A DNA stretch of 64,000 nucleotides. Source: Clostridia bacterium. Its GTDB lineage: Bacteria; Bacillota; Clostridia; Christensenellales; CAG-1252. A model generated the notes under the pieces. The model did not search any database and was not told the origin of the DNA. It saw only the letters and a program-made list of their open reading frames with translations. This document shows, piece after piece, positions 1,121 to 53,023 of the stretch. Within the stretch, counting starts at the first letter, position 1, and every line of letters begins with the position of its first letter. Made by a program: the position numbers and the translations under genes. The stretch is from positions 60,382 through 124,381 of the forward strand of contig JAFSWQ010000013.1 of NCBI GenBank assembly GCA_017444385.1, in the 5' to 3' direction.

Positions 1121-1157
1121 CGAGTAGCGCGCAATAAGCGATTGCTACTTGATTTTT
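1121..1157 (+). terminator. Probable intrinsic terminator after the NUDIX gene
   Basis: Stem AGTAGC...GCTACT followed by a T-run. Confidence 0.45.
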
Positions 1158-1210
1158 TAGTTACGGTCGTTTATAATAATTGCAAATACGCTATTGCTTG
1201 AGAGGCTTAT

Positions 1211-1882
1211 ATGGACAAACCGAAAATAGTCGAGATAAAAGAGGATATTACGTCGCGCAATAATCTTTTTGCGAAAGAGATAAAAGCGGAAATGAAGAGA
1301 AAGAAGATATTCTACCTTAACGTTATGGCTTCCCCGGGAAGCGGGAAAACCACCCTTATAACCAATCTCGTCAACCGTTTGAAGAACGACTATAAAATAG
1401 GCGTTATAGAAGCGGATATAGACTCGGACGTGGACGCGGTGAAACTGCTCTCGACCGGCGTAAAAGTGATACAAATGCACACGGCGGGCGCTTGTCATAT
1501 CACCTGTCAAATGTCTTACGAGGCTTTATGCGCTTTGGGCGTTGAGGATCTCGACCTCGTTATTTTGGAAAACGTGGGCAACCTCGTTTGCCCCGCCGAA
1601 TTCGACACGGGCGCGACCGAAAACCTCGTTTTATTGTCCGTTCCCGAAGGGGACGATAAACCCTTAAAATACCCCCTTATGTTCGAAGTCGCCGACGTGG
1701 TCGCAATAACCAAGACCGACGTAAAAGATATCTTTGATTTTTCCTTTGAAAAGGCGAAAGCCAACGTAAGAAAACGCAACGAAAATGCCGAGGTCTTCGT
1801 ATTGTCCGCGAAGAAGGACGAGAACGTTGACGCGCTTGAACAATATTTGAGAAAAAGGATAGACTCGATTAAAAATGCTTGA
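1211..1882 (+). CDS. hypB: HypB-family nickel-insertion GTPase (copy 1)
   Basis: SPGSGKTT P-loop, CH metal motif (AGACH), ENVGNLVCPAEFD, SVPEGDDKPLKYP, TKTD. Confidence 0.92.
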   Translation: MDKPKIVEIKEDITSRNNLFAKEIKAEMKRKKIFYLNVMASPGSGKTTLITNLVNRLKNDYKIGVIEADIDSDVDAVKLLSTGVKVIQMHTAGACHITCQMSYEALCALGVEDLDLVILENVGNLVCPAEFDTGATENLVLLSVPEGDDKPLKYPLMFEVADVVAITKTDVKDIFDFSFEKAKANVRKRNENAEVFVLSAKKDENVDALEQYLRKRIDSIKNA

Positions 1883-2453
1883 CGAAAACGCTAAAAAACA
1901 ACGGGATTTTTTTAACAGACTCGCGCCCGAATGGCGTGAGAAACCCGAATATAAATTAAATGCGGAAAAGGCGCTTTCCCCCATCAAATTCAAGGTCGGC
2001 GAAAGGGTGCTTGACGTCGCTTGCGGAAGCGGCGCGTTGGACTCTACGCTACTTTCTTACGGCTTAAAAGTGGACGCGATAGACGTTTCGGATAAGATGA
2101 TAGAGAAAGCTAAAAGCGACGAGAGGAACGCGGGCGTTAATTTCATCGTAGGCGACTTTTATCAACACGCGGGCGAATACGACAAGATACTCGTTTTCGA
2201 CGCATATCCCCATTTTAAGGACAAAATCGCGTTCAAAAATTCCGCCGCGCGAATGCTTGGGAAAGAGGGCGAATTATGGATATTCTTCGACGACGGAAGA
2301 GAGGGGATAGACTCTCATCACGGCGGGTTAAGCGATATCTCTGTGGGGTTGAGGCTTCCCGAAGAGGAAAGCGAGGATTTAGCCCCCGAGTTTACGCCGT
2401 TTTTCGTGTATTCCGACGAAAAGTCGTATTATTTGGGATTAAAACGCAATTAA
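1875..2453 (+). CDS. Class I SAM-dependent methyltransferase
   Basis: VLDVACGSG motif I, IDVSDKMIEKA; overlaps the hypB stop. Confidence 0.85.
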   Translation: MLDENAKKQRDFFNRLAPEWREKPEYKLNAEKALSPIKFKVGERVLDVACGSGALDSTLLSYGLKVDAIDVSDKMIEKAKSDERNAGVNFIVGDFYQHAGEYDKILVFDAYPHFKDKIAFKNSAARMLGKEGELWIFFDDGREGIDSHHGGLSDISVGLRLPEEESEDLAPEFTPFFVYSDEKSYYLGLKRN

Positions 2454-2469
2454 GATGGATAAATATCTC

Positions 2470-2498
2470 TTTACAAAAACATATTTATAATATATAAT
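2470..2498 (+). promoter_or_regulatory. Sigma-A-like promoter upstream of the second hypB
   Basis: TTTACA-17-TATAAT. Confidence 0.6.
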
Positions 2499-2551
2499 TG
2501 AAAATAGAGAGGTAAGCTCTCGAACGTAAGACGATAAAAGCCCGCTTAAAT

Positions 2552-3214
2552 ATGGAAGTAAAGACGATTTTATTGAAGAAAAGCGTATTTGAAGACAACG
2601 ACCTGTCCGCCGCAAAACTCCGTAAAGAATTGGCGGATAAGGGCGTTTTTTTAGTAAACGTTATGTCTTCGCCCGGGGCGGGTAAGACGAGTACGCTCGT
2701 CGCTTTGATAAACGAGCTTTCTTCTTCGTACAGGATAGGCGTAATGGAAGCGGATATAGATTCGGACGTCGACGCCGTAACGGTCGCCAAAAAGACGGGT
2801 TGCCCATCGGTGCAACTTCATACCGACGGAATGTGCCACCTCGACGCTGAAATGACGAGACAAGGTCTTAACGAACTCGGCGACGGATTCGATCTTATAT
2901 TCCTGGAAAACGTGGGCAACCTCGTTTGTCCCGCCGAGTACGACACGGGCGCAAGTATGGATATGACCATCCTTTCGGTTCCCGAGGGGGACGACAAGCC
3001 TTTGAAATATCCCCTTATTTACTCTAAATGCGACCTCGTTCTTATTAACAAGATAGACGCGTTGCACTATTTCGATTTCGATCTCGAAAAGTGTGAAAAG
3101 AATATATTATATCGTAATCCTTCCGCAACGATCATTCCGATCTCCGCAAGGCGCGGCGACGGGATAGGAGCGGTCGTACAATATTTCAAAAAAATACTCG
3201 ATCAAGGAGAATAA
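2552..3214 (+). CDS. hypB: HypB-family nickel-insertion GTPase (copy 2)
   Basis: SPGAGKTS, DGMCH, ENVGNLVCPAEYD, EGDDKPLKYP, NKID. Confidence 0.92.
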   Translation: MEVKTILLKKSVFEDNDLSAAKLRKELADKGVFLVNVMSSPGAGKTSTLVALINELSSSYRIGVMEADIDSDVDAVTVAKKTGCPSVQLHTDGMCHLDAEMTRQGLNELGDGFDLIFLENVGNLVCPAEYDTGASMDMTILSVPEGDDKPLKYPLIYSKCDLVLINKIDALHYFDFDLEKCEKNILYRNPSATIIPISARRGDGIGAVVQYFKKILDQGE

Positions 3215-3215
3215 T

Positions 3216-6077
3216 ATGCCTAAACAAAACGACAAGATTATCAGTAAGTACCAAGGCGAAGCGGAACTTCAAGAGAAGTACGCAAAACTCGGTAGAAAGG
3301 TTACCGACGTAGTCGCGCATAAAATCGGCGGTATTACCGCGGACGATCCCGAATATTGGGGACTTCGCGAGATGCTCACGCCCGAGATGGTGGACATTTG
3401 TCTTAAAATGAAATTGCGTAAGCATTATACCATCGAGGAATTGCAAAAGATGAACCCCGAGTTCGAGCCCGCAAGACTGCAGGAATTGATGAACGAAATG
3501 TCGGTCATCGGCTTTATCGAGTACGATTACGGCGATTGTTATCCCGACCACGACGGCGTGTTGAGACACACCAACAAGGTCAAGAGATATCGCTTGCCTT
3601 TCTTCGTTCCCGGCAGCGCCGAATTGTTCAACTCTTCGGTGGATAGAATCGAAAGAAATCCCGCCGTCACCTCTTTCTTCGAGAGAATGACCTTTATTCC
3701 TTTGGCGGGTATAACCCAAATGGTTCGTCCCGGCGGCGACGGTATCGGTATGCACGTAATCCCCGTTGAAAAAGCCGTTCAAGCGACAAACGAATCCATC
3801 GACTTGGAACGTATCTCTTATTGGCTCGACAAGTACGAAGGGCATATATCCGCGGGTATTTGTTCTTGCCGCGCGTCCCGCGCAGTTCTCGGCGACGGTT
3901 GTACCGACAACGAAGACGATTGGTGCGTACAACTCGGCGATATGGCGGACTACACCGTGGAAACGGGGAGAGCGCATTACATAACCAAAGAGCGCGCCCT
4001 CGAGATTTTCGAGCTTGCCGAAAAGAACGGTTACGTTCACCAAATCACCAACATCGACGGTGAAAACAAGATATTCGATATTTGCAACTGTAACGTCAAA
4101 ATATGCAATGCGTTGAGAACCTCGCTTTTGTTCAATACGCCCTATCTCTCTCGTAGCGCGTACACCGCGAACGTAGAGAAAGAGAAGTGCGTCGCTTGCG
4201 GAAAGTGCGTTGAAGTGTGCCCCGCCGGCGCAGTAAAGCTCGGTCAAAAGCTTTGTAAGAAAGACGGTAGCGAAGTCAAGTATAAACACGCGCCTTTGCC
4301 CGACAACAACATTTGGGGCGAATACGCTTGGGATGAAGAGTACAGAGATACCGCGAGAATGAGCAACACCTATCCTCAAGGCAGCGCGCCTTGTAAGGCG
4401 GCTTGCCCCGCGCACGTTCCCGTACAGGCCTACCTTAAACTCGCTCGCGACGGCAAATATCGCGAGGCTTTGGCGATGATAAAGACCGAGAATCCTTTCC
4501 CCGCCGTATGCGGCAGAGTATGTAACAAACGTTGCGAAGACGCTTGTACGAGAGGACAAATCGATAAGCCCGTATCCATCGACGCGGTTAAGAAATTCGT
4601 AGCCGACCTCGAATTGAAGGCGGAAAACAGATATATTCCCGATAAGGTAGTCCAATCCGTCCACGGAAAATTCGACGAGAAGATAGCCATAATCGGCGCG
4701 GGCCCCGCGGGTTTGAGCGCGGCTTACTATCTTGCCGAGATGGGTTATAATCCCACCGTGTTCGAGAAAAACGAGAAGCCCGGCGGTATGCTTACTTACG
4801 GCATTCCTTCTTATAAACTCGAAAAAGACGTTATCGAAGCCGAAGTCGACGTTTTGAGAAAGCTCGGCGTCGAGATCAAATGCGGCGTGGAAGTAGGTAA
4901 GGACGTCACTATCGACGAACTTAAAAAGCAAGGCTATAAAGCGTTTTATATCGCCATCGGTTGCCAAGGCGGCAGACGTCCGGGCGTAGAAAACGATAAG
5001 GCTGTGGGCACCGAAATAGCGGTGGAATACTTAAAAGGCGCTCTTGATAAACAAGTCGAATTCGACGGCAACGTGGTAGTAGTTGGCGGCGGTAACGTCG
5101 CGGTAGACTGCGCGAGAACGGCGAAGAGACTCAAAGCCAAATCCGTTAAGATGATTTGCTTGGAAAGCGAGAAGGAAATGCCCGCTTCCAAAGAGGAAAT
5201 CACCGAGACCAAAGAAGAAAATATCGAAATAATGAACGGTTGGGGTCCCAAGGAAGTCAAAGTCGACGCCGAGGGCAAAGTGGTAGCCGTCGTATTCAAG
5301 AAGTGTTTGAGAACGATAGATCCCACCACGAAGAAATTCTCCCCCGTTTACGACGAAACGGTTACCGTCGAAGTACCCGCCGATAAGGTGGTATTCGCTA
5401 TCGGTCAAGCGATAGAGTGGGGCGACTTGCTCAAAGGAACCAAGGTGGAATTCTGGCACGGCAACTATCCCGTAGCGGATAAGTTCACCTATCAAACCGC
5501 GGACGAAGATATATTCGTAGGCGGCGACGTTTACACCGGTCCTCGTTTCGTCATCGACGCCATCGCTGCGGGACACGAAGCGGCGGAAAGTTTGCATCGT
5601 CACGTCAGACCTCGCGCTTCTATGACCATAGGTAGAGATAGAAGAAACTACACGCCTTTGGACAAAGAAGACCTCAAATATCCCGAATACGACAAAGCGG
5701 GCAGACAGGAAGCGGGTATGGACGAAACCGTCGATCACAAGAATTCCTTCAAGGACGCTCATAAGACCTTGACCGAAGAACAAGTCAAGATCGAGACCAA
5801 GAGATGTCTCTCTTGCGGCGCTTCCTACGTCGATCCCAATAAGTGTATCGGTTGCGGTCTTTGCACTACGAGATGCCAATTCGACGCCATCCATCTTTTG
5901 AGAGATCATCCCAAATGTTCGGATATGAGAATAGCCGAAGACAAGGTCACCGGTTTGCTTTCCTACGCGGCTAAACGCGCGTTCAAGATAATCGGTCACT
6001 TAGGCAGCGAGGAGGCGAAGGAACTCAAAGCGAAGCGTAAAGCCTACAAGAAAGCGCAAAAAGAACAAGAAGCGTAA
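3216..6077 (+). CDS. Large multi-[4Fe-4S]/FAD NAD(P)H oxidoreductase (GltD/DPD-like core) with an uncharacterised Cys-rich N-terminal domain
   Basis: CVACGKCVEVCP ferredoxin motif; APCKAACP...CGRVCNKRCEDAC; GAGPAG; GGGNVA; C-terminal RCLSC...CIGCGLCTTRC. Confidence 0.85.
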   Translation: MPKQNDKIISKYQGEAELQEKYAKLGRKVTDVVAHKIGGITADDPEYWGLREMLTPEMVDICLKMKLRKHYTIEELQKMNPEFEPARLQELMNEMSVIGFIEYDYGDCYPDHDGVLRHTNKVKRYRLPFFVPGSAELFNSSVDRIERNPAVTSFFERMTFIPLAGITQMVRPGGDGIGMHVIPVEKAVQATNESIDLERISYWLDKYEGHISAGICSCRASRAVLGDGCTDNEDDWCVQLGDMADYTVETGRAHYITKERALEIFELAEKNGYVHQITNIDGENKIFDICNCNVKICNALRTSLLFNTPYLSRSAYTANVEKEKCVACGKCVEVCPAGAVKLGQKLCKKDGSEVKYKHAPLPDNNIWGEYAWDEEYRDTARMSNTYPQGSAPCKAACPAHVPVQAYLKLARDGKYREALAMIKTENPFPAVCGRVCNKRCEDACTRGQIDKPVSIDAVKKFVADLELKAENRYIPDKVVQSVHGKFDEKIAIIGAGPAGLSAAYYLAEMGYNPTVFEKNEKPGGMLTYGIPSYKLEKDVIEAEVDVLRKLGVEIKCGVEVGKDVTIDELKKQGYKAFYIAIGCQGGRRPGVENDKAVGTEIAVEYLKGALDKQVEFDGNVVVVGGGNVAVDCARTAKRLKAKSVKMICLESEKEMPASKEEITETKEENIEIMNGWGPKEVKVDAEGKVVAVVFKKCLRTIDPTTKKFSPVYDETVTVEVPADKVVFAIGQAIEWGDLLKGTKVEFWHGNYPVADKFTYQTADEDIFVGGDVYTGPRFVIDAIAAGHEAAESLHRHVRPRASMTIGRDRRNYTPLDKEDLKYPEYDKAGRQEAGMDETVDHKNSFKDAHKTLTEEQVKIETKRCLSCGASYVDPNKCIGCGLCTTRCQFDAIHLLRDHPKCSDMRIAEDKVTGLLSYAAKRAFKIIGHLGSEEAKELKAKRKAYKKAQKEQEA

Positions 6078-6107
6078 ATCCTATAAGAAAGCGCAAAACG
6101 CTCGGCT

Positions 6108-6293
6108 CGTCATCCCGAGCGAAGTCGAGGGATCCCCTAACGCGAAGCAGCAAAAGCTAAAAACTCGGACGAGACGTTTCGACTACGCTCAACGTGACGA
6201 ACGATTATTAAACTTATGCGTAACAGTACGAAAAACGCTTAACGTATTGTAAGTACAAGTACGTCATCCCGAGCGAAGTCGAGGGATCCCCTA
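6108..6293. repeat. CGTC-tagged REP-like cluster (A, inverted B, A)
   Basis: CGTCATCCCGAGCGAAGTCGAGGGATCCCCTA at 6108 and 6262; GAGACGTTTCGACTACGCTCAACGTGACG at 6171. Confidence 0.85.
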
Positions 6294-6328
6294 TTAAAAT
6301 AAAAAGGAATGAATATATCGCTTTAACT

Positions 6329-6673
6329 ATGCACGAACTCGGAATAGTAATGAACGTAATATCGCAGGTCGAGAAGGTCGCCGAAGAAAACAAAGTGAAC
6401 GCCGTCAAAGCGCTCACTATGGAAGTCGGCGAAGTCTCTTCCGTCGTGCCCGATCTTTTCAAGGATTGTTTCGAGTGGGCGAAAAAGAGAACGAAGTATA
6501 TGACGGACTGCGAACTCGACCTCGTCGTACTCGAAGCGATATCCTATTGTAGGGACTGCAAGAGCAATTACAAAACCACGACTTACGCAAAAGAATGCCC
6601 GCATTGTAAGAGCGTAAACACCTATCTCATAACGGGCAACGAGATCAATATTCACGATATAAAAGTGATTTAG
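6329..6673 (+). CDS. hypA: HypA-family nickel metallochaperone
   Basis: N-terminal MHE nickel motif, VGEVS, two CxxC motifs (CRDC, CPHC). Confidence 0.92.
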   Translation: MHELGIVMNVISQVEKVAEENKVNAVKALTMEVGEVSSVVPDLFKDCFEWAKKRTKYMTDCELDLVVLEAISYCRDCKSNYKTTTYAKECPHCKSVNTYLITGNEINIHDIKVI

Positions 6674-6688
6674 ACGAAAGGCGTAGGC

Positions 6689-6775: not shown

Positions 6776-7300
6776 TCAGTCGAAAATGTGTTCGTAGAGG
6801 TATTCGTAAATGGACGTCGCTTTGTCTTGCCAGGTATTTGCGGCGTAACGAGCGCTATCCTTGTTCCCCGCGACGATCTTGAATTCAAGTAGTTTATTCG
6901 AAGAAGAAGGGTCGGAAATGGATAACTTCACCGTATAAGTGCCGTCGGCATTGAGAAAATAGTCGGCGTCCAATTCCTGTCTTTTGCGGTATTCGTACTT
7001 CTTTTTGTTTACCACGTCTACTATTTGTTCGCGGGTGGAAGAGGGTATCTTCGTGTAGAAGTTGGCGATGCAAAGCCTTCCTTCAGCGGTGATGTTGTAA
7101 AAGACCTTTCCGTTTTGACGGGAAACGTGCAGGAAATTTGCGTCGTTGAGTTGGCCCAACGCGCTCTTACAACTCATATAAGTCATCCAAGGATTGTCTT
7201 GATAGCAGATAGAAATAATAATGTCTTCAGATAGTGCTACTTCCATTCTATCCATTAAGTAAAGTATCTTCAATTTATCAATATTATCGTTATCAACCAT
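6776..7300 (-). CDS. DUF4364-like winged-helix protein
   Basis: KLKILYLM...YNITAEGR N-terminal winged helix and a C-terminal 'ADY...Y.VKL.I' region typical of this family; ATG at 7300 with an AGAGG SD. Confidence 0.7.
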   Translation of the reverse strand: MVDNDNIDKLKILYLMDRMEVALSEDIIISICYQDNPWMTYMSCKSALGQLNDANFLHVSRQNGKVFYNITAEGRLCIANFYTKIPSSTREQIVDVVNKKKYEYRKRQELDADYFLNADGTYTVKLSISDPSSSNKLLEFKIVAGNKDSARYAANTWQDKATSIYEYLYEHIFD

Positions 7301-7383
7301 AAATTCGCCTCTTGAGTGTGGTAATATGTATTTTATCATATATTCTTTATAAATAAAACAATATTTTGAAAAATTTTTTCTTA

Positions 7384-7443
7384 TATCAATATATTGTGGT
7401 CGTTTTCCCGCCGACATACTATTTAACCCACAATATGTTGTTT
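7384..7443. promoter_or_regulatory. Pair of NrdR-box-like palindromes
   Basis: TATCAATATATTGTGG (7384) and CCACAATATGTTGTTT (7428) resemble the boxes before nrdD. Confidence 0.45.
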
Positions 7444-9146: not shown

Positions 9147-11165
9147 ATGAAAGTTTTTGATACAGAAAGTATTCGTAACGTGGCTTTGATAGGTCACGGC
9201 GGCGAAGGTAAGACTTCTCTTGCCGAAGCCATGATGTTTAACGGTAAAACCATCGACAGACTCGGTCGCGTAGACGACGGTACTGCTACGATGGACTTCG
9301 ACGCGGAAGAGGTCGCTCGTAAGATCTCCATCGGTTTGGGTTTGGGCTACACCGTTTGGAAAGATACCAAGATCAATATCCTCGACACTCCGGGTTCCTT
9401 CGATTTCGAAGGCGAAGTTGTCGCCGCTTTGCACGTAGCGGACGGCGCGGTCATCGTTACCAGCGCGAGCGGTAACCTTTCGGTCGGTACCGAGAAGGCG
9501 ATCGAAATGATCAACGAACGCAAAATGCCCGCTATCCTTTTCATCAACGGCGTCACCAAAGAAAACGCCAACTATCTTGAAACGGTTTCCGCTATCAGAG
9601 AGACCTACAAGAACGTTATCGCGGCTGAAATCCCCATCGTTGCCGGCAATCAAATGAACGGTTACGTCAGCGTATTGGACGGCAAGGCTTACGATATGAA
9701 CGGCGCTGAAATCGCTATCCCCGCCGCTTTCCAAAGCGCGTATGAAGAAGCGAGATTCGAACTCGTCGAAAAGGCTGCCGAAGCATCCGACGAATTGATG
9801 GAAAAATATTTCGAGACCGGCGATTTGTCCGAAGAAGACGTTCTCGCAGGCGCGAGAGTTTTGGTTGAGAACTGCGACCTTATCTTGGCGGTCGGCGGTA
9901 GCGCGACTCAAAACGTAGGCGTAAAAGAGCTTATGAACAAGATCGTTGATATCGTTCCCACGCCTAAGACGAAGGCGAGCGCTACCTGTTTGCAAGTTTT
10001 CAAATCCATCGTAGACCCTTACGTCGGCAAACTTTTGATGTTCAAAGTTATGGGCGGTACGTTGAACGCGGGCGACAACCTCGTAAACGTTTCCAACGAT
10101 AAGAGCGAAAGAGTCGCTTCCATCTATTGCATTAAGGGCAAGAAGCAAGAGGCGGTCGATAAATTCAACGCCGGCGATATCGGCGCAGTAGCGAAACTCG
10201 GTTACACCAAGACCGGCGACGTTCTTTGCGATCCTCAAAACAAGACCGAACTCGATCCCATTCCTTTCCCCGTTCCCGTTATCAGCCTCGCTATCAACGC
10301 GTTGAAGAAGGACGACGAAGAAAAGGTCATTTCCGCGGTATATAAAGTACTCGAAGAAGAAAGCACCGTTCGTATCGAAAAGAATGCCGAGACCAACGAG
10401 ACCTTATTGCAAGGTTTGGGCGAGACTCAACTCGATATCATCGTCAAGAAAGTTAAGAATAAATACGGTTTGGACGCTATTTTGAGAGAGCCCAGAGTTT
10501 CTTACAGAGAGACCATTCGTAAATCTTCCGAAGCGGTCGGCAGACATAAGAAACAAAACGGCGGTAGCGGTCAATTCGGTCAATGCTCCGTTCGTTTCGA
10601 GCCGGGCGCGGCTGACGGCGAATTCGAATTCGTCGACGCGGTCGTAGGCGGCGCGATACCTCGTCAATATATCCCTTCGGTTGAAAAAGGTCTTCGCGAA
10701 GCGGTCAAGACGGGCGTTTTGGCGGGATACCCCATGATCAACGTTAAAGCAACCGTATTCGACGGTAAGTACCATCCCGTAGACAGTAAGGAAATCGCTT
10801 TCATCTCCGCGGCTAAACTCGCGTACGACGAAGGTATCCCCGCTGCGGGTCCTTACTTCCTCGAACCCATTATGGACGTTAAGATCATCGTTCCTTCCAG
10901 TTACCTCGGTGACGTTATGGGCGATATCAGCAAACGTCGCGGCGGCATCAAGTTCACCGAAGAAGTCAACGGTAAGCAAATTATAACCGCTACCGTTCCT
11001 CAAGCGGAAATGTTGAAGTACGCCACCGACTTGCGTTCTATGACTCAAGGCAGAGGTAAGTTCACTATGACCTTCGCCGAGTATCAAGAAGTTCCCGCTT
11101 CCAATAACGATAAGATCATCGAAGACGCGAAGAAACGTCGCGCCGAACTCGAAGCGAGAAAGTAA
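9147..11165 (+). CDS. fusA: Elongation factor G paralog (EF-G2/FusA2 type)
   Basis: GHGGEGKT, DTPG, domain IV HKKQNGGSGQFG, DGKYHPVDS, YATDLRSMTQGRG; not in an str operon. Confidence 0.88.
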   Translation: MKVFDTESIRNVALIGHGGEGKTSLAEAMMFNGKTIDRLGRVDDGTATMDFDAEEVARKISIGLGLGYTVWKDTKINILDTPGSFDFEGEVVAALHVADGAVIVTSASGNLSVGTEKAIEMINERKMPAILFINGVTKENANYLETVSAIRETYKNVIAAEIPIVAGNQMNGYVSVLDGKAYDMNGAEIAIPAAFQSAYEEARFELVEKAAEASDELMEKYFETGDLSEEDVLAGARVLVENCDLILAVGGSATQNVGVKELMNKIVDIVPTPKTKASATCLQVFKSIVDPYVGKLLMFKVMGGTLNAGDNLVNVSNDKSERVASIYCIKGKKQEAVDKFNAGDIGAVAKLGYTKTGDVLCDPQNKTELDPIPFPVPVISLAINALKKDDEEKVISAVYKVLEEESTVRIEKNAETNETLLQGLGETQLDIIVKKVKNKYGLDAILREPRVSYRETIRKSSEAVGRHKKQNGGSGQFGQCSVRFEPGAADGEFEFVDAVVGGAIPRQYIPSVEKGLREAVKTGVLAGYPMINVKATVFDGKYHPVDSKEIAFISAAKLAYDEGIPAAGPYFLEPIMDVKIIVPSSYLGDVMGDISKRRGGIKFTEEVNGKQIITATVPQAEMLKYATDLRSMTQGRGKFTMTFAEYQEVPASNNDKIIEDAKKRRAELEARK

Positions 11166-48418: not shown

Positions 48419-51400
48419 TTAGGCTACGGCGAAGGTCACGCCCGAGTAGGATACGGAGTATGCGTCCGCAAGCGCTTGCGTTTTGACGTAAACCGTCTTT
48501 CCGTTCAATACCGTGAGATCGGTGCCCGTTATGGTTACCTGTTCGTCGGATAGGATATAAAGTTTAGTGATAGACTCGCAGTGCAAGAGGATTCCCTTTA
48601 ATGAATCGCTACCGTTGAAGTAGAAGGTCGTGAGCGTAGCGGGCACGTAATTGCCGTCGTAAGTCGCGGCTCCGCCGAATAGACGATATACGGCGAGTTG
48701 GTTGCTTCCGTTCGTGCCGTCGTAGGTCAAGGTTTCGACTTTCGAACAACCGCTGAATACGTTTTCGTTGACGGTCGCGTCCGCGCTTATCTCTATCGTC
48801 TTCAATGCGGAACAGCCGTTGAAGGCTTCGTTCTTGATTATCGCCGAGCCCTTTATGACGAGAGAGGTTATCGCGGTACAATTTTCAAACGCTCTGTTGC
48901 CCACTTCCAAAATGTTTTCGTCGATGGTTACCGAAGTTATCGACTTGTTTCCGCTGAATACCGCGGCGGCAATTTTGGTTACCGTGTATCCGCTTACCGA
49001 AGCGGGTATAACGAGTTTTCCGCTAACCGAACCTATCGAGGACAAGGTCGCGTTAGATCCCGAAAGCGAGAATCTCAAATTCGCCGTATTGCTTACGCCG
49101 TTCGTCTTGCTTTCGTAGAAGAGAGGTTGTACCCTTACGTTGTCGGTAGAGCCGAAGTCCGCGGTCTCGGTGACGTTCTTGTTTAACGTCAAACACCACC
49201 AGCCGCCGAAGTTATATCCCGTCTTGGTGGGGTTGCCGAGAGGTTTGGACGCCAATTCTGTATAGGTTTCCACCTTGCCGCTTAACGTCATTCCTTCCGC
49301 GTCGACGTAGGTTATCGTGCGGATAACGGCGAATTTTGCGTATAAGGTGAGGTCGTCTGCGGGGGTTTTTATCGAGGTAATTCCCGAAGAAACCGTGCCC
49401 GCTTTATTGACGAATTCCGCGTCAGTGTACCAAGCGTCGAAGACGTAGCCCGTTAATTCAGCCGAAGTGACTTTTATCGTCGTGTTGTAGGTGAACGTTT
49501 CGGGGTTTTGTCCCGTCGCACCCTCGATAAGCGTCGCGCCGTCGGGCAAAGAATAAGTCAAGTGGTACACCGTGTTGGCGAGAGAGCCGTCCAACGTGTA
49601 TTTGTTGAGTTTGTCGATGGTTATCTCGGAAGTTTCGGTCGTGCCTATCTTCCAATACTCTACGTATTTCCCGACGAGAGAGTTTTCGGCGAAAACGCCC
49701 GCAGTAAGCAGTTCTTCGTAGGTGGGAAGAACGTAAACGCCGTTTACGAAATCTTCCGCGTTGTAATTCAAAACGCCGGTTTTACCGTTTACCCTGAACG
49801 TGAGCGCGTAGTTTACGGGCGTCCAAGTTGCCGTCAACGTGATATCGCGGTAGACGAAGCCCTCGCCGCCCAAATCGGTTATGGATTCCCCGTCGAGAGT
49901 CCAAACGCAAACGTAATGCGCGCGTGTGGGTAAAGGTAAGGTGTAGGTGTACTTCGAGCCCACTCTCATTCCGTCTATCGTGTATTTGGTGGGTAGAGAG
50001 GAAACGTCGGCTTCCTCGCAAACGTAGGTTATCGAGTATTCGCCTTTTATCCATTCCGCGTAAACGGTTATTTCGTCGTTTTCATTGGCGAGAGAGACGG
50101 ACAGCGCATTGATCGCGTAAACCTCGTTGAAAGTTCCGTTTACGGCGGGGCGAGAATACCAGCTTATAAAGTCGTAGCCGTTTCTCGTGGCGTCTTCGAG
50201 ATCGGGCGAAGCGCCGTAGAGGAAGGAAGCGGGGTTCTCGGACGAGGCGGGGAAGTCCTCGGAATCGTTATAAACGTAGTTTACGGTATAAGTCTTAACG
50301 TCCCATTTTGCCCAAGCGGTATAATTCGCGCCCACTTCCGCGGGTACGAAAGAGGTCACTTTATGTATAAAGGTACTCTCTTTATACCAACCGCCGAAGT
50401 TGTAACCCGTTTTCGTGGGCGTTTCCAAGACGACTATTTCGTCTTCGAGCGTGTACGCTCTCAAACCGGGATAAACCGCGTTTTCCATATTCTTCAAGGT
50501 CATTATATAGGTAACGGGCGTCCACTTCGCGTATAATACCATGTTGCCGTAGTTGCCTTTTCTAATGTCGGTAGGATGGTGGGAAAGGAATTCTTCGTCG
50601 TCAAACCAACCTTCGAAGTTGTAGTTGGGGTATGAAGGTACTTTCAACGTGAATTCGTCGTTCGCCGTATAGGTCGCGGGTATATCCGCTTTGACGAGAT
50701 ATCCGTCGTCCTCTTTGTTGTAGTGTAGGGTTATCGTATAGGTTATCGCCGACCACTTTGCGTAAACGTCGATATCCTCGTCGGCGGTTTCGGCTTCTAT
50801 ATATTCCACGCGCGAAGTCTTGTATTCGGGATCCCTATACCAGTCCACGAAGTTGAAGCCGTTCCTCGGTATAAAGGCGGAGTCGGCGGGTACGAGAAGG
50901 TTCTTTCTTACCGTCGTTTCGTATTCCACCTCTCTTATGTACTCGACGCCGTCGAAATCGGTATAGAAGTGGTGCCTTATGACGTGCGAGTGAACGTCGT
51001 AATATGCGATGAGCGGCAAGGTGTTGTCGCGCAGTTTGTTGGAAACGATCAATTCGATTATGGGCGCGGTTGCTATATCTATCGCCTCGGTCTCGCCGAC
51101 GAGATCGTCTTCATTGGAATAGGTAAGATTAAGGTCGAGGTTTCTCCAATTCGTAAAGGTGCAACCCGGACGAGTGGGAATGAGAAGGGTTACCTTGTCG
51201 TCGTTTTCAACGAAGGTTACGTTTATGACTTTGGGATTGATGCCGTCGAGAATAAGGGTATCGAGGCTCAACGTGTAGCAGGTTTCGAGCTTCGCGTACA
51301 AGGTGACGTCCCCCGAAGAGCGAGCGGGTATCTTGTATCTGCCTTCGCTCGTTTTTGAATATTCGCTCGACGCCGAATAGGATTTGTCGGTGAACCAGCC

Positions 51401-53023
51401 GTAGAATTTGAAAGAGGGTACTTCGTAATTGGATATCAAGGTGTCCGAATCGGTGACTTTGAATTTAATAACGTCTATCACTTCGTCGGTGAGTCCGTTT
51501 ACCCTCGTCAAAGTGTATTCGTTTTCCGTCCATTTGGCGGTGACGGTGATATTCGTGCAAATATTCTTGGTCGTGGTTATCGCTTGATTGTTGTAGAACC
51601 AACCCTCGAAGGTAAATCCGCGCCTTACCGCGTCTTCGAAATCAATGGGGGCGTCTTGCGAGAAGGTCTCGGCATTTAGGTTGGTCGCGGGGGTGTCCAC
51701 CCCGTCCGAAAGAACGTAGGTCACCGTGTACTCTATCGCGGTAAAGTGAGCCGTCAAGACCATATCCCCCGTGGTGCCTTTTCTTATACCCGTTATCGTC
51801 GCGCCGCCGTAATCGGTGTAATGGCTGAAAACGTAGCCTGCGGGCGCAGTGTAGTTAGGTAATTGCGCGGGGCGGGGCAGAGGCTTTTCGTCGTCAACGT
51901 CGTAGGTGGCGTTACCCATAAAGTTGCCCTTGTCATCGTAGAAAGAAATGGTGTAATTGGCTTTTTGCCACTTCGCCGTCAATGTGATATCGCTTTCTAC
52001 AATGGCGGTGAAATCGAATTTAGCGTTGTCTTCGTCATACCAACCTATGAACACCCAGCCCGTGCGTCTTGCGTCGGGGTTTGCCACCAAGCCGTCTTTG
52101 GTCTGTACGTCGAACACGGCGCCCTCTTCGTAATTCTCGTTGAAGGTTACGGTGTAAACGGGGTAGGGTACTTTAACGGTGTATTCGAGCGTCGCTTTTA
52201 TCGTTCGCCTTTCGCTATCGGTGAAGGATATCGTGCAGGACTTTTCGCCTAATTCGGAAGAGGAAAAACCGCTCACTTTGAAAGTAGAGTCGTAGACGTA
52301 TTCGGCTACGTCGCCGTTTTCATATTCCACTCTGAATTTAACGCCCGAAAGCGCTGACGATAGTTCCGCCGTACTATCGTCGAGATAGACGGATATCGCT
52401 TTGTCGTAGGTGACAGTTTTAGCGGCGGGGAGTTGCAAAACGGTATATTCCCAAGTTGCCGTAACGTCGCCGTAGTCGGTAACGACGGTAACGTCGGCTT
52501 TTTTCGAACCTACTTTTGAAGTGGAAAAATTCTTTATCCAAATGCCTTTAATACGCAATTCCACTTCGCCCACGTCTTTGACGGTAACTACCGCCTTGCC
52601 CGTTTTAAGATATCCGTCGCCGTCAAGCGGAAGTTCCGCGTTGAAATAGATGGACTCGGGCATATCGACGAGTCTCACTTCGGTTATTCTCGAAACAATG
52701 TCGGCGGGCGAAACCGAGTACTTCAAAATCGCGGTAAAGTTTTGGTAAACGATACGCAAACTCTTTGAGGCGGCTTCCGAATTCGTGTTGAATTGCGCCG
52801 CGTCGAACATACCCTCGCTTACGGGTAAGATTTCTTGACTTCCGTCCGAATAGTTTACGGTAACGTACATTCCCGTAAGATCTATCTCGTCGCCGACTTT
52901 GTAATCGGTCTTGTAATTGCCCGAGAGCGTAACGGACGTTATCGTGACGTCTTCCTTCGCGCAAGCCGCGAACAAGCAGACGACGACGGTCAGTATTATA
53001 ACGATAGCGAATAATTTTTTCAT
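48419..53023 (-). CDS. Large surface lipoprotein with bacterial Ig-like domains, many Listeria-Bacteroides (Flg_new) repeats and C-terminal BspA-type LRRs
   Basis: LFAAC lipobox; KTDYKVGDEIDLTG.. Ig-like motif; recurrent GY.F.GWY...LYAKW units; AFENC/AFNGC LRRs. Confidence 0.88.
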   Translation of the reverse strand: MKKLFAIVIILTVVVCLFAACAKEDVTITSVTLSGNYKTDYKVGDEIDLTGMYVTVNYSDGSQEILPVSEGMFDAAQFNTNSEAASKSLRIVYQNFTAILKYSVSPADIVSRITEVRLVDMPESIYFNAELPLDGDGYLKTGKAVVTVKDVGEVELRIKGIWIKNFSTSKVGSKKADVTVVTDYGDVTATWEYTVLQLPAAKTVTYDKAISVYLDDSTAELSSALSGVKFRVEYENGDVAEYVYDSTFKVSGFSSSELGEKSCTISFTDSERRTIKATLEYTVKVPYPVYTVTFNENYEEGAVFDVQTKDGLVANPDARRTGWVFIGWYDEDNAKFDFTAIVESDITLTAKWQKANYTISFYDDKGNFMGNATYDVDDEKPLPRPAQLPNYTAPAGYVFSHYTDYGGATITGIRKGTTGDMVLTAHFTAIEYTVTYVLSDGVDTPATNLNAETFSQDAPIDFEDAVRRGFTFEGWFYNNQAITTTKNICTNITVTAKWTENEYTLTRVNGLTDEVIDVIKFKVTDSDTLISNYEVPSFKFYGWFTDKSYSASSEYSKTSEGRYKIPARSSGDVTLYAKLETCYTLSLDTLILDGINPKVINVTFVENDDKVTLLIPTRPGCTFTNWRNLDLNLTYSNEDDLVGETEAIDIATAPIIELIVSNKLRDNTLPLIAYYDVHSHVIRHHFYTDFDGVEYIREVEYETTVRKNLLVPADSAFIPRNGFNFVDWYRDPEYKTSRVEYIEAETADEDIDVYAKWSAITYTITLHYNKEDDGYLVKADIPATYTANDEFTLKVPSYPNYNFEGWFDDEEFLSHHPTDIRKGNYGNMVLYAKWTPVTYIMTLKNMENAVYPGLRAYTLEDEIVVLETPTKTGYNFGGWYKESTFIHKVTSFVPAEVGANYTAWAKWDVKTYTVNYVYNDSEDFPASSENPASFLYGASPDLEDATRNGYDFISWYSRPAVNGTFNEVYAINALSVSLANENDEITVYAEWIKGEYSITYVCEEADVSSLPTKYTIDGMRVGSKYTYTLPLPTRAHYVCVWTLDGESITDLGGEGFVYRDITLTATWTPVNYALTFRVNGKTGVLNYNAEDFVNGVYVLPTYEELLTAGVFAENSLVGKYVEYWKIGTTETSEITIDKLNKYTLDGSLANTVYHLTYSLPDGATLIEGATGQNPETFTYNTTIKVTSAELTGYVFDAWYTDAEFVNKAGTVSSGITSIKTPADDLTLYAKFAVIRTITYVDAEGMTLSGKVETYTELASKPLGNPTKTGYNFGGWWCLTLNKNVTETADFGSTDNVRVQPLFYESKTNGVSNTANLRFSLSGSNATLSSIGSVSGKLVIPASVSGYTVTKIAAAVFSGNKSITSVTIDENILEVGNRAFENCTAITSLVIKGSAIIKNEAFNGCSALKTIEISADATVNENVFSGCSKVETLTYDGTNGSNQLAVYRLFGGAATYDGNYVPATLTTFYFNGSDSLKGILLHCESITKLYILSDEQVTITGTDLTVLNGKTVYVKTQALADAYSVSYSGVTFAVA

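Follow-up and report, generated by a model that had tools for sequence, protein, structure and literature searches.

The closest described system to the locus reported here is that of IsrA, the putative isoprene reductase of Acetobacterium wieringae ISORED-2, an isoprene-induced oxidoreductase of 901 amino acids (aa) (Kronen et al., 2023; PMC10134865). As described in that paper, the operon carries two hypA genes, one hypB gene and a ferredoxin gene, and IsrA, HypA and HypB were the proteins most strongly induced by isoprene. The first ~270 residues of IsrA have no annotated domain; the protein possesses six Cys including two CxC motifs (C180/C182 and C254/C256), with ferredoxin motifs at residues 289-300 and 848-877, and its host genome is described as having neither a [NiFe] hydrogenase nor hypCDEF. 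Among 988 homologs, termed 'clade 9', hypA was found nearby for 73% and hypB for 56%, and the six-Cys site ('cluster V') was put forward as one where nickel might be bound (Kronen et al., 2023). A Pelotomaculum preprint (February 2026) reports hypA and hypB transcripts to be up 373- and 585-fold with isoprene, the enzyme still being uncharacterised, and a literature search for later biochemistry on the family yielded nothing further relevant beyond the IsrA paper and preprints. The window analyzed here is a stretch of 64,000 nucleotides (nt) from a Clostridia bacterium (GCA_017444385.1, contig JAFSWQ010000013.1, positions 60,382 to 124,381). From sequence comparison, a locus of five genes within it is assigned with high confidence to the 'clade 9' family, and the reading favored here, as somewhat more probable than not, is that of an operon for a nickel-dependent reductase which would act on conjugated C=C bonds and be matured by its own HypA and HypB.

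The five genes are co-directional and were identified from the list of open reading frames (ORFs) between positions 1211 and 6673:

1211-1882, plus strand: hypB1, a nickel chaperone of the G3E family of GTPases (223 aa; TIGR00073, 225.5 bits)
1875-2453, plus strand: a class I S-adenosylmethionine-dependent methyltransferase (192 aa; Methyltransf_11, 45.7 bits)
2552-3214, plus strand: hypB2, the second HypB paralog (220 aa; TIGR00073, 210.6 bits)
3216-6077, plus strand: OX, an IsrA-type Fe-S flavoprotein (953 aa)
6329-6673, plus strand: hypA, a nickel metallochaperone (114 aa; PF01155, 101.4 bits)

OX is the label used below for the large oxidoreductase gene and its product. The ORF list and the family scans both bear out the initial annotation, which had described two hypB genes, a methyltransferase and hypA around a single large oxidoreductase, with only 1 nt between the stop of hypB2 and the start of OX; the start of the methyltransferase overlaps the end of hypB1 by 8 nt. 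The absence of hydrogenase, urease and carbon monoxide dehydrogenase (CODH) genes from the window, which had also been noted, was confirmed, the other 39 ORFs being housekeeping genes with no known nickel enzyme among them (E ≤ 1e-20). The locus had been presented as a possible unknown nickel-enzyme system. It is not unknown, since the family and its nickel hypothesis have already been published (Kronen et al., 2023), but the proposal that HypA and HypB metallate the N-terminal domain appears to be the best-supported reading of the comparative data.

The likeness of OX to IsrA was established by domain order and motif spacing taken from the published description rather than by direct alignment. 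Both proteins possess an N-terminal domain with six Cys, a ferredoxin motif, a Fer4_20 module with an FAD/NAD(P) core and a C-terminal ferredoxin domain, in that order. In each, the two CxC motifs are 74 residues apart (C216 to C290 in OX, C180 to C254 in IsrA), and a further 35 residues lead from the second CxC to the ferredoxin motif (C325 in OX, position 289 in IsrA); both spacings were also found in distant relatives of OX. In each case the gene has hypA and hypB neighbors, in a genome where no [NiFe] hydrogenase or HypCDEF has been found. The following domains were located in OX:

3264-3701, plus strand: winged-helix-like subdomain, residues 17-162 (model mean predicted local distance difference test score, pLDDT, 78)
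3804-4145, plus strand: Cys6 core with invariant Cys, residues 197-310, the proposed Ni or Ni-Fe-S and substrate site
4167-4232, plus strand: [4Fe-4S] ferredoxin motif, residues 318-339 (C325, C328, C331, C335; Fer4_6)
4383-5609, plus strand: NfnB/GltD-like core with two [4Fe-4S] clusters, FAD and NAD(P)H sites, residues 390-798 (Fer4_20, Pyr_redox_2)
5808-5981, plus strand: C-terminal ferredoxin-type domain, residues 865-922 (Fer4 871-892, Fer4_15 871-922)

The NfnB/GltD-like core was readily recognized, with profile scores of 95.1 bits for Pyr_redox_2 and 80.5 bits for Fer4_20, and matches to the PDB chains 9bov_A, 8oh5_C and 9n5u_A (NfnA) with E values of 2e-90 to 1.5e-77. These solved chains of NfnA, StnC and dihydropyrimidine dehydrogenase (DPD) type align with OX from about residue 370 on. 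OX was also considered as a glutamate synthase small subunit or NfnB equivalog and rejected, its scores of 270.2 for TIGR01316 and 439.4 for NF009410 being below the respective cut-offs of 471.75 and 516, as were all its NCBIfam equivalog scores; it shares the module and is not a member.

No Pfam family was found for residues 1-320 even at E ≤ 10, and the N-terminus had no sequence match in the PDB save short Fer4 matches from about residue 288. The additional Cys and His residues which had been pointed out ahead of the GltD-like core are present (C216-S-C218-R, C229, C237, H275-Q, C290-N-C292 and C297), and the Cys6 core comprises six of these Cys (C216, C218, C237, C290, C292 and C297) with H275. 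In eight aligned N-terminal domains, with identities down to 33%, the six Cys, R219, H275, N291, R301 and several Glu are invariant, as are the four Cys of the ferredoxin motif beginning at C325; C229 is not conserved in the relatives. The domain is widespread, with more than 8000 clusters of relatives at 90% identity. When 1.84 billion representatives at 50% identity were searched, 963 matches were obtained at E ≤ 0.001 and 96 at E ≤ 1e-30. Among the matches listed, the best relatives are ~80% identical and nearly all are 940-960 aa in length.

A model of the N-terminal domain (residues 1-350, from a 65-row alignment) was predicted with a mean pLDDT of 78.0 and a predicted template modeling score of 0.81. 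Only residues 17-162 resemble known folds, mainly those of winged-helix DNA-binding proteins, the best structural match being 7kd3_B (Z 5.7, root-mean-square deviation 4.1, 77 residues aligned), and Foldseek gave no match to the whole model at E ≤ 0.001. When the Cys6 core was predicted alone (residues 160-345), the mean pLDDT was 66.7, with values of 79-94 across an alpha/beta core. At that model quality the best VIA-align score against solved structures was Z 3.1, again with no Foldseek match at E ≤ 0.001. In these models the Cys6 core thus appears to have no detectable solved relative, a weak or missing match being no proof of a new fold.

The accessory proteins carry the residues expected of nickel chaperones. 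Both HypB proteins lie above the TIGR00073 cut-off of 121.2 bits and are 47% identical to each other; the translation of hypB1 includes the P-loop GSGKT, a G-A-C-H motif and ENVGNLVCPA, and that of hypB2 includes GAGKT, G-M-C-H and ENVGNLVCPA. The GTPase P-loop and the C-H...C metal-site motif (named as in Kronen et al., 2023) are kept in both. HypA exceeds the PF01155 cut-off of 28.9 bits and possesses the N-terminal MHE nickel motif and two CxxC zinc pairs (C74/C77 and C90/C93). A tandem hypB-hypB arrangement 5' of OX, as in the window, was found in genomes G141, G142, G164, G165 and G003, within the subclade nearest to the window, and more distant clusters have a single hypB; this recurrence suggests that the two paralogs may form a HypB heterodimer.

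For the survey of hypA and hypB co-occurrence which the initial annotation had called for, 601 pattern-matched stretches were taken from species-representative genomes, of which 445 encode an OX relative and the best 80 were kept. Their hosts include Acutalibacteraceae, Oscillospiraceae, Lachnospiraceae (Lachnospira eligens, Roseburia), Erysipelotrichaceae, Collinsella, Bacteroidales and a Hallerella genome. In this set hypA lies within 500 nt of OX on the same strand at 73 loci, hypB lies within 5 kb at 57 and both are present at 55, the loci with an adjacent hypA being spread over several phyla. Seven loci are without hypA, and five of these end within 204 nt of OX.

The phyletic pattern was examined in 151 genomes of the order, including the genome assembly holding the window (G000), with family cut-offs applied. 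OX was found in 16 genomes, HypA in 28, HypB in 24 and HypD in 10. Every OX carrier has both HypA and HypB (16/16) and none has HypD (0/16). Conversely, the HypD carriers have HypA in 10/10 and HypB in 8/10 cases and OX in 0/10, and no genome among the 151 that lacks OX as well as HypD had a HypB above cut-off. Four genomes (G076, G104, G129 and G142) possess two OX copies with a separate hypA next to each of them, and the first three of these genomes have a single hypB, which is compatible with a general HypB supplying HypA proteins dedicated to individual clients. In a HypA tree, built on only 115 columns and with long branches flagged, a long branch (length 2.55, support 100/98) separates 47 OX-linked HypA proteins from the ten HypA of HypD carriers and an orphan HypA from G025. 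The window's hypA lies inside the OX-linked clade. The mutual exclusion of OX and HypD, the paralog-specific hypA, the separate HypA clade and the conserved synteny strengthen the nickel reading.

HypA outside the genomes with OX or HypD was seen in G025 (~91 bits) and in G115 (a marginal 29.6 bits, in a 201-aa frame). The orphan hypA of G025, a genome without HypD, HypB and OX, is directly upstream of a gene for an 885-aa sigma-54 activator (locus L093, G025:C2, 8311-11472), which has a [FeFe]-hydrogenase-like sensor, PAS and Fe-S domains and is followed by NuoE/NuoF-like genes. This 885-aa neighbor had been considered as an OX relative and was found to be unrelated to OX.

Other clients for the chaperones were looked for. 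G000 comprises 0.92 Mb in 19 contigs and is 54.34% complete; no [NiFe]-hydrogenase large subunit (PF00374), CODH/hybrid cluster protein (HCP) or HypD was found in it, and because absences from so incomplete a genome weigh little, relatives were examined instead. The large subunit, HypD and CODH/HCP were each absent from five relatives that are 81-99% complete (G001, G003, G007, G021 and G040). A second set, 97-99% complete (G003, G141, G165, G142 and G102), yielded no urease alpha and no CODH/HCP (0/5 for each) and LarA in one genome (1/5). A [NiFe]-hydrogenase maturation system in the OX genomes was rejected on these grounds, there being no PF00374 in G000 or the five relatives and no HypD in the 16 carriers. 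The combination of a hydrogenase with hypCDEF elsewhere in the genome and homologs usually lacking hypAB, which would have spoken against the initial annotation, was not encountered in the genomes searched.

A hint at the substrate comes from close orthologs. In G141, whose N-terminal domain is 77% identical to that of the window, the gene order is hypB, a 459-aa gene, hypB, OX and hypA. [quoted passage not shown] PDB 2B9W is cited in PMC8515934 as well, where the protein goes without a name. A 2B9W-like gene is also present directly upstream of hypB-OX in G001 (same genus, N-domain 82% identical) and G019 (78%), adjoins the cluster of a 34%-identical OX paralog in G059 and lies 3.4 kb from the second OX copy in G003. 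Within 6 kb of OX it was found at 5 of the 80 loci, and the four genomes of the order that possess it (4/151) all carry OX. In a FastTree of 74 OX proteins, given without support values, all eight isomerase-linked rows fall within the clade holding the window's OX. A diene-making isomerase beside a homolog of an isoprene reductase suggests that linoleate may be converted first to CLA and then to a monoene. In Kronen et al. (2023) the main text mentions neither linoleate nor an isomerase, CLA together with hypA and hypB gave no literature match, and for HypA/HypB with biohydrogenation the matches listed comprised isoprene work only. No 2B9W/PAI-like gene was found in the window or in G000 (54% complete). 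With a methyltransferase occupying the slot between the two hypB genes, a fatty-acid substrate for the window's OX would be extrapolated from orthologs, and both points count against it. A conjugated fatty acid is offered tentatively as the substrate in this clade.

Taken together, a nickel-dependent active site in OX is considered somewhat probable. We infer the presence and position of the nickel, the electron path and the substrate from sequence and from comparison between genomes, and the following scheme is proposed. OX would take electrons from NAD(P)H at the NfnB/GltD-like FAD module, and these would reach the Cys6 site of the fold-orphan N-terminal domain by way of four canonical [4Fe-4S] clusters; at that site an otherwise unreactive conjugated C=C bond would be reduced. 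HypB, here as two paralogs and possibly as a heterodimer, would load Ni2+ onto HypA in a GTP-dependent manner, and HypA, specific for its OX client, would place the nickel in the Cys6 site or next to it. For the clade of the window, the substrate would most likely be a conjugated-diene fatty acid, such as CLA from a PAI-type isomerase.

Several observations weigh against this scheme. Two loci (L030 and L054) have no hypA despite ample flank, 23 of the 80 loci have no hypB within 5 kb, and all seven Collinsella loci have hypA with no hypB nearby. The compared genomes are kin, and the counts are not independent and overstate independence. The hypA product scores 76.9 bits on the TIGR00100 equivalog, below the cut-off of 88.1. 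Nickel importers of the CbiM/NikM (PF01891) and NiCoT (PF03824) types were each found in 0/5 of the second set of near-complete OX carriers named above, in a search that did not extend to ABC systems of the NikABCDE type. No nickel measurement for any family member was found in the literature searched, in which IsrA is called putative. Two CxC motifs among six Cys are also compatible with a plain Fe-S cluster, whether or not a redox-active disulfide accompanies it, a point that Kronen et al. (2023) make for ferredoxin:thioredoxin reductase.

There is weak support for transcription. The RNA library was a single animal-gut metatranscriptome run (X5), in which 27% of the sampled words were found. 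Contigs from this run differ from the window at 1-8 letters each and cover OX piecewise from 3137 to 5737 and hypA from 6340 to 6688, and one of them (3137-3322) bridges the junction of hypB2 and OX. Little or no cover was obtained for hypB1 and the methyltransferase, which is not evidence of silence. The contigs show neither strand nor transcript ends, derive from one run and may include DNA carry-over.

The points on the Cys6 ligands, the importers and the nickel measurement also speak for the strongest alternative, that OX is an ordinary Fe-S flavoprotein. Its six Cys would then hold Fe-S only, perhaps together with the kind of redox-active disulfide present in ferredoxin:thioredoxin reductase or HdrB, with HypA and HypB delivering another metal, serving a structural or regulatory role or supplying non-catalytic nickel. 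CxC motifs are known Fe-S ligands, and in the published model the site lines up with the chain of clusters at a distance of 13.5 Å (Kronen et al., 2023). This explanation is nevertheless judged unlikely. The MHE motif of HypA and the C-H...C motifs of HypB are intact, both proteins are kept in all 16 OX carriers without HypD, each OX paralog has its own hypA and the OX-linked HypA clade is distinct. To our knowledge, nickel chaperones so consistently retained without a nickel client would be unprecedented.

A nickel-bearing Cys6 site could also activate H2, which would make OX a new Ni-Fe-S hydrogenase free of CO and CN, coupled to NAD(P)+ or a flavin-bound substrate. This is very unlikely, since no Fe(CN)2CO centre is possible without HypCDEF, and since an organic substrate is indicated by isoprene induction and by the diene-forming isomerase linked to OX; the published prediction has a tunnel that ends at the Cys6 site (Kronen et al., 2023). 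In its favor are the usual role of hydrogenases as clients of HypA/HypB, a core without a solved relative, whose chemistry is open, and the growth of the isoprene-reducing A. wieringae cultures on H2/HCO3-/isoprene (Kronen et al., 2023). Least probable of all is that the chaperones serve a different nickel enzyme encoded away from the locus and that their linkage to OX reflects co-regulation only: LarA occurs in one of five carriers, a client could be unassembled in the 54%-complete G000 and hypB is distant at 23 loci, but LarA is matured by LarBCE and not HypAB (Kronen et al., 2023), hydrogenase, urease and CODH/HCP were absent from the five-genome sets and HypD from those in which it was sought, and hypA tracks OX in copy number and adjoins it at 73 loci over several phyla.

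If the preferred reading is correct and the family does bind nickel, it would represent a new catalytic use of this metal and a third known type of HypA/HypB client, the other two being hydrogenase and urease. Members of the family are plentiful among gut and rumen anaerobes, and the isomerase linkage names CLA isomers as cheap and concrete candidate substrates, tying the family to ruminal and intestinal fatty-acid biohydrogenation. That OX would at once constitute a new Ni-[Fe-S] enzyme class with HypCDEF-free maturation, hydrogenate dienes and be the missing CLA reductase of gut and rumen biohydrogenation is a bolder proposition and is regarded as doubtful.

The methyltransferase had no NCBIfam equivalog at its cut-off. 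It is translationally coupled to hypB1 and fills the slot held by the PAI-like isomerase in the orthologous G141 locus. Weak relatives (28-32% identity) were found 1.0-1.7 kb downstream of OX at 5 of the 80 loci (L055, L059, L065, L071 and L079), and an isoprene-induced methyltransferase unlinked to the IsrA operon has been described in A. wieringae (Kronen et al., 2023). Two further neighbors recur among the 80 loci. A DUF5692 protein (PF18948, 465 bits, L060 7788-8831), a membrane protein with four or more hydrophobic segments, is present at 14 and lies downstream of OX-hypA on the same strand at 11 of them; it could be a transporter of substrate or metal. A GntR/FCD regulator is present at 13, mostly upstream of OX and divergent. 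No functional lead was obtained for either, the literature on DUF5692 found by searching being limited to PMC10134865.

The non-coding features detected around the operon were as follows:

1149-1177, plus strand: promoter-like site 5' of hypB1, TTGATT-17-TATAAT (10/12, consensus match only)
2470-2498, plus strand: promoter-like site 5' of hypB2, TTTACA-17-TATAAT (11/12, consensus match only)
6109-6139, plus strand: first copy of a 31-nt dispersed repeat resembling repetitive extragenic palindromic (REP) elements, in the OX-hypA spacer
6263-6293, plus strand: second copy of the REP-like repeat, in the same spacer

Promoter-like consensus sites in the region number 14, compared with 9.6 expected. 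The two direct copies of the repeat in the 251-nt spacer between OX and hypA are identical, and 15 copies with up to 3 mismatches are dispersed over both strands of the 0.92-Mb G000, which indicates a REP-like element. The spacer folds more stably than its shuffles (z = -3.7). One RNA contig joins position 6123 to 6301, which points to a variant from a related strain without the 177 nt between the repeat copies.

Elsewhere in the window, a gene for a DUF4364 protein (6776-7417, minus strand, 114 bits) is convergent with the hypA end of the operon, an adjacency not conserved in related loci. A 672-aa paralog of elongation factor G (EF-G) is encoded at 9147-11165 between a racemase-like gene and a dap/lys operon; it scores 800 bits on NF009381 and 576.5 on the EF-G equivalog TIGR00484, for which the cut-off is 659.4. 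A 1534-aa protein with Listeria-Bacteroides repeats (TIGR02543), encoded at 48419-53023 on the minus strand, is probably a surface protein.

In comparison with known systems, OX shares with the NfnB/GltD/DPD N-terminal module (PDB 9n5u NfnA, 4ylf and 5jca) the Fer4_20 and the FAD and NAD(P)H Rossmann domains of residues 390-798; it differs in its additional 380-residue N-terminal region and C-terminal ferredoxin domain, and in that no gene for a partner subunit adjoins it. The A-cluster of acetyl-CoA synthase and ferredoxin:thioredoxin reductase, both named as look-alikes by Kronen et al. (2023), likewise have CxC motifs beside an Fe-S cluster, but no sequence or fold match between them and OX was found here, and acetyl-CoA synthase is matured by ATPases of the AcsF/CooC type and not by HypAB (Kronen et al., 2023). 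The HypA and HypB of the window resemble those which mature [NiFe]-hydrogenase and the urease of Helicobacter in that they pass the Pfam and TIGR00073 cut-offs and keep the metal motifs. They differ in that the OX carriers have no HypCDEF and no hydrogenase or urease client in the genomes searched, and in that the OX-linked HypA form a clade apart from the HypA of HypD carriers. OX also differs from IsrA itself. The host of IsrA is an acetogen and that of OX a gut bacterium, the proteins are 901 and 953 aa in length, and the closest orthologs of OX are linked to a PAI-type isomerase, of which Kronen et al. (2023) make no mention in their main text. The IsrA operon has two hypA genes, one hypB gene and a gene for a 350-aa ferredoxin, in contrast to the two hypB genes, one hypA gene and methyltransferase of the window, which thus adds a variant gene set to a published family.

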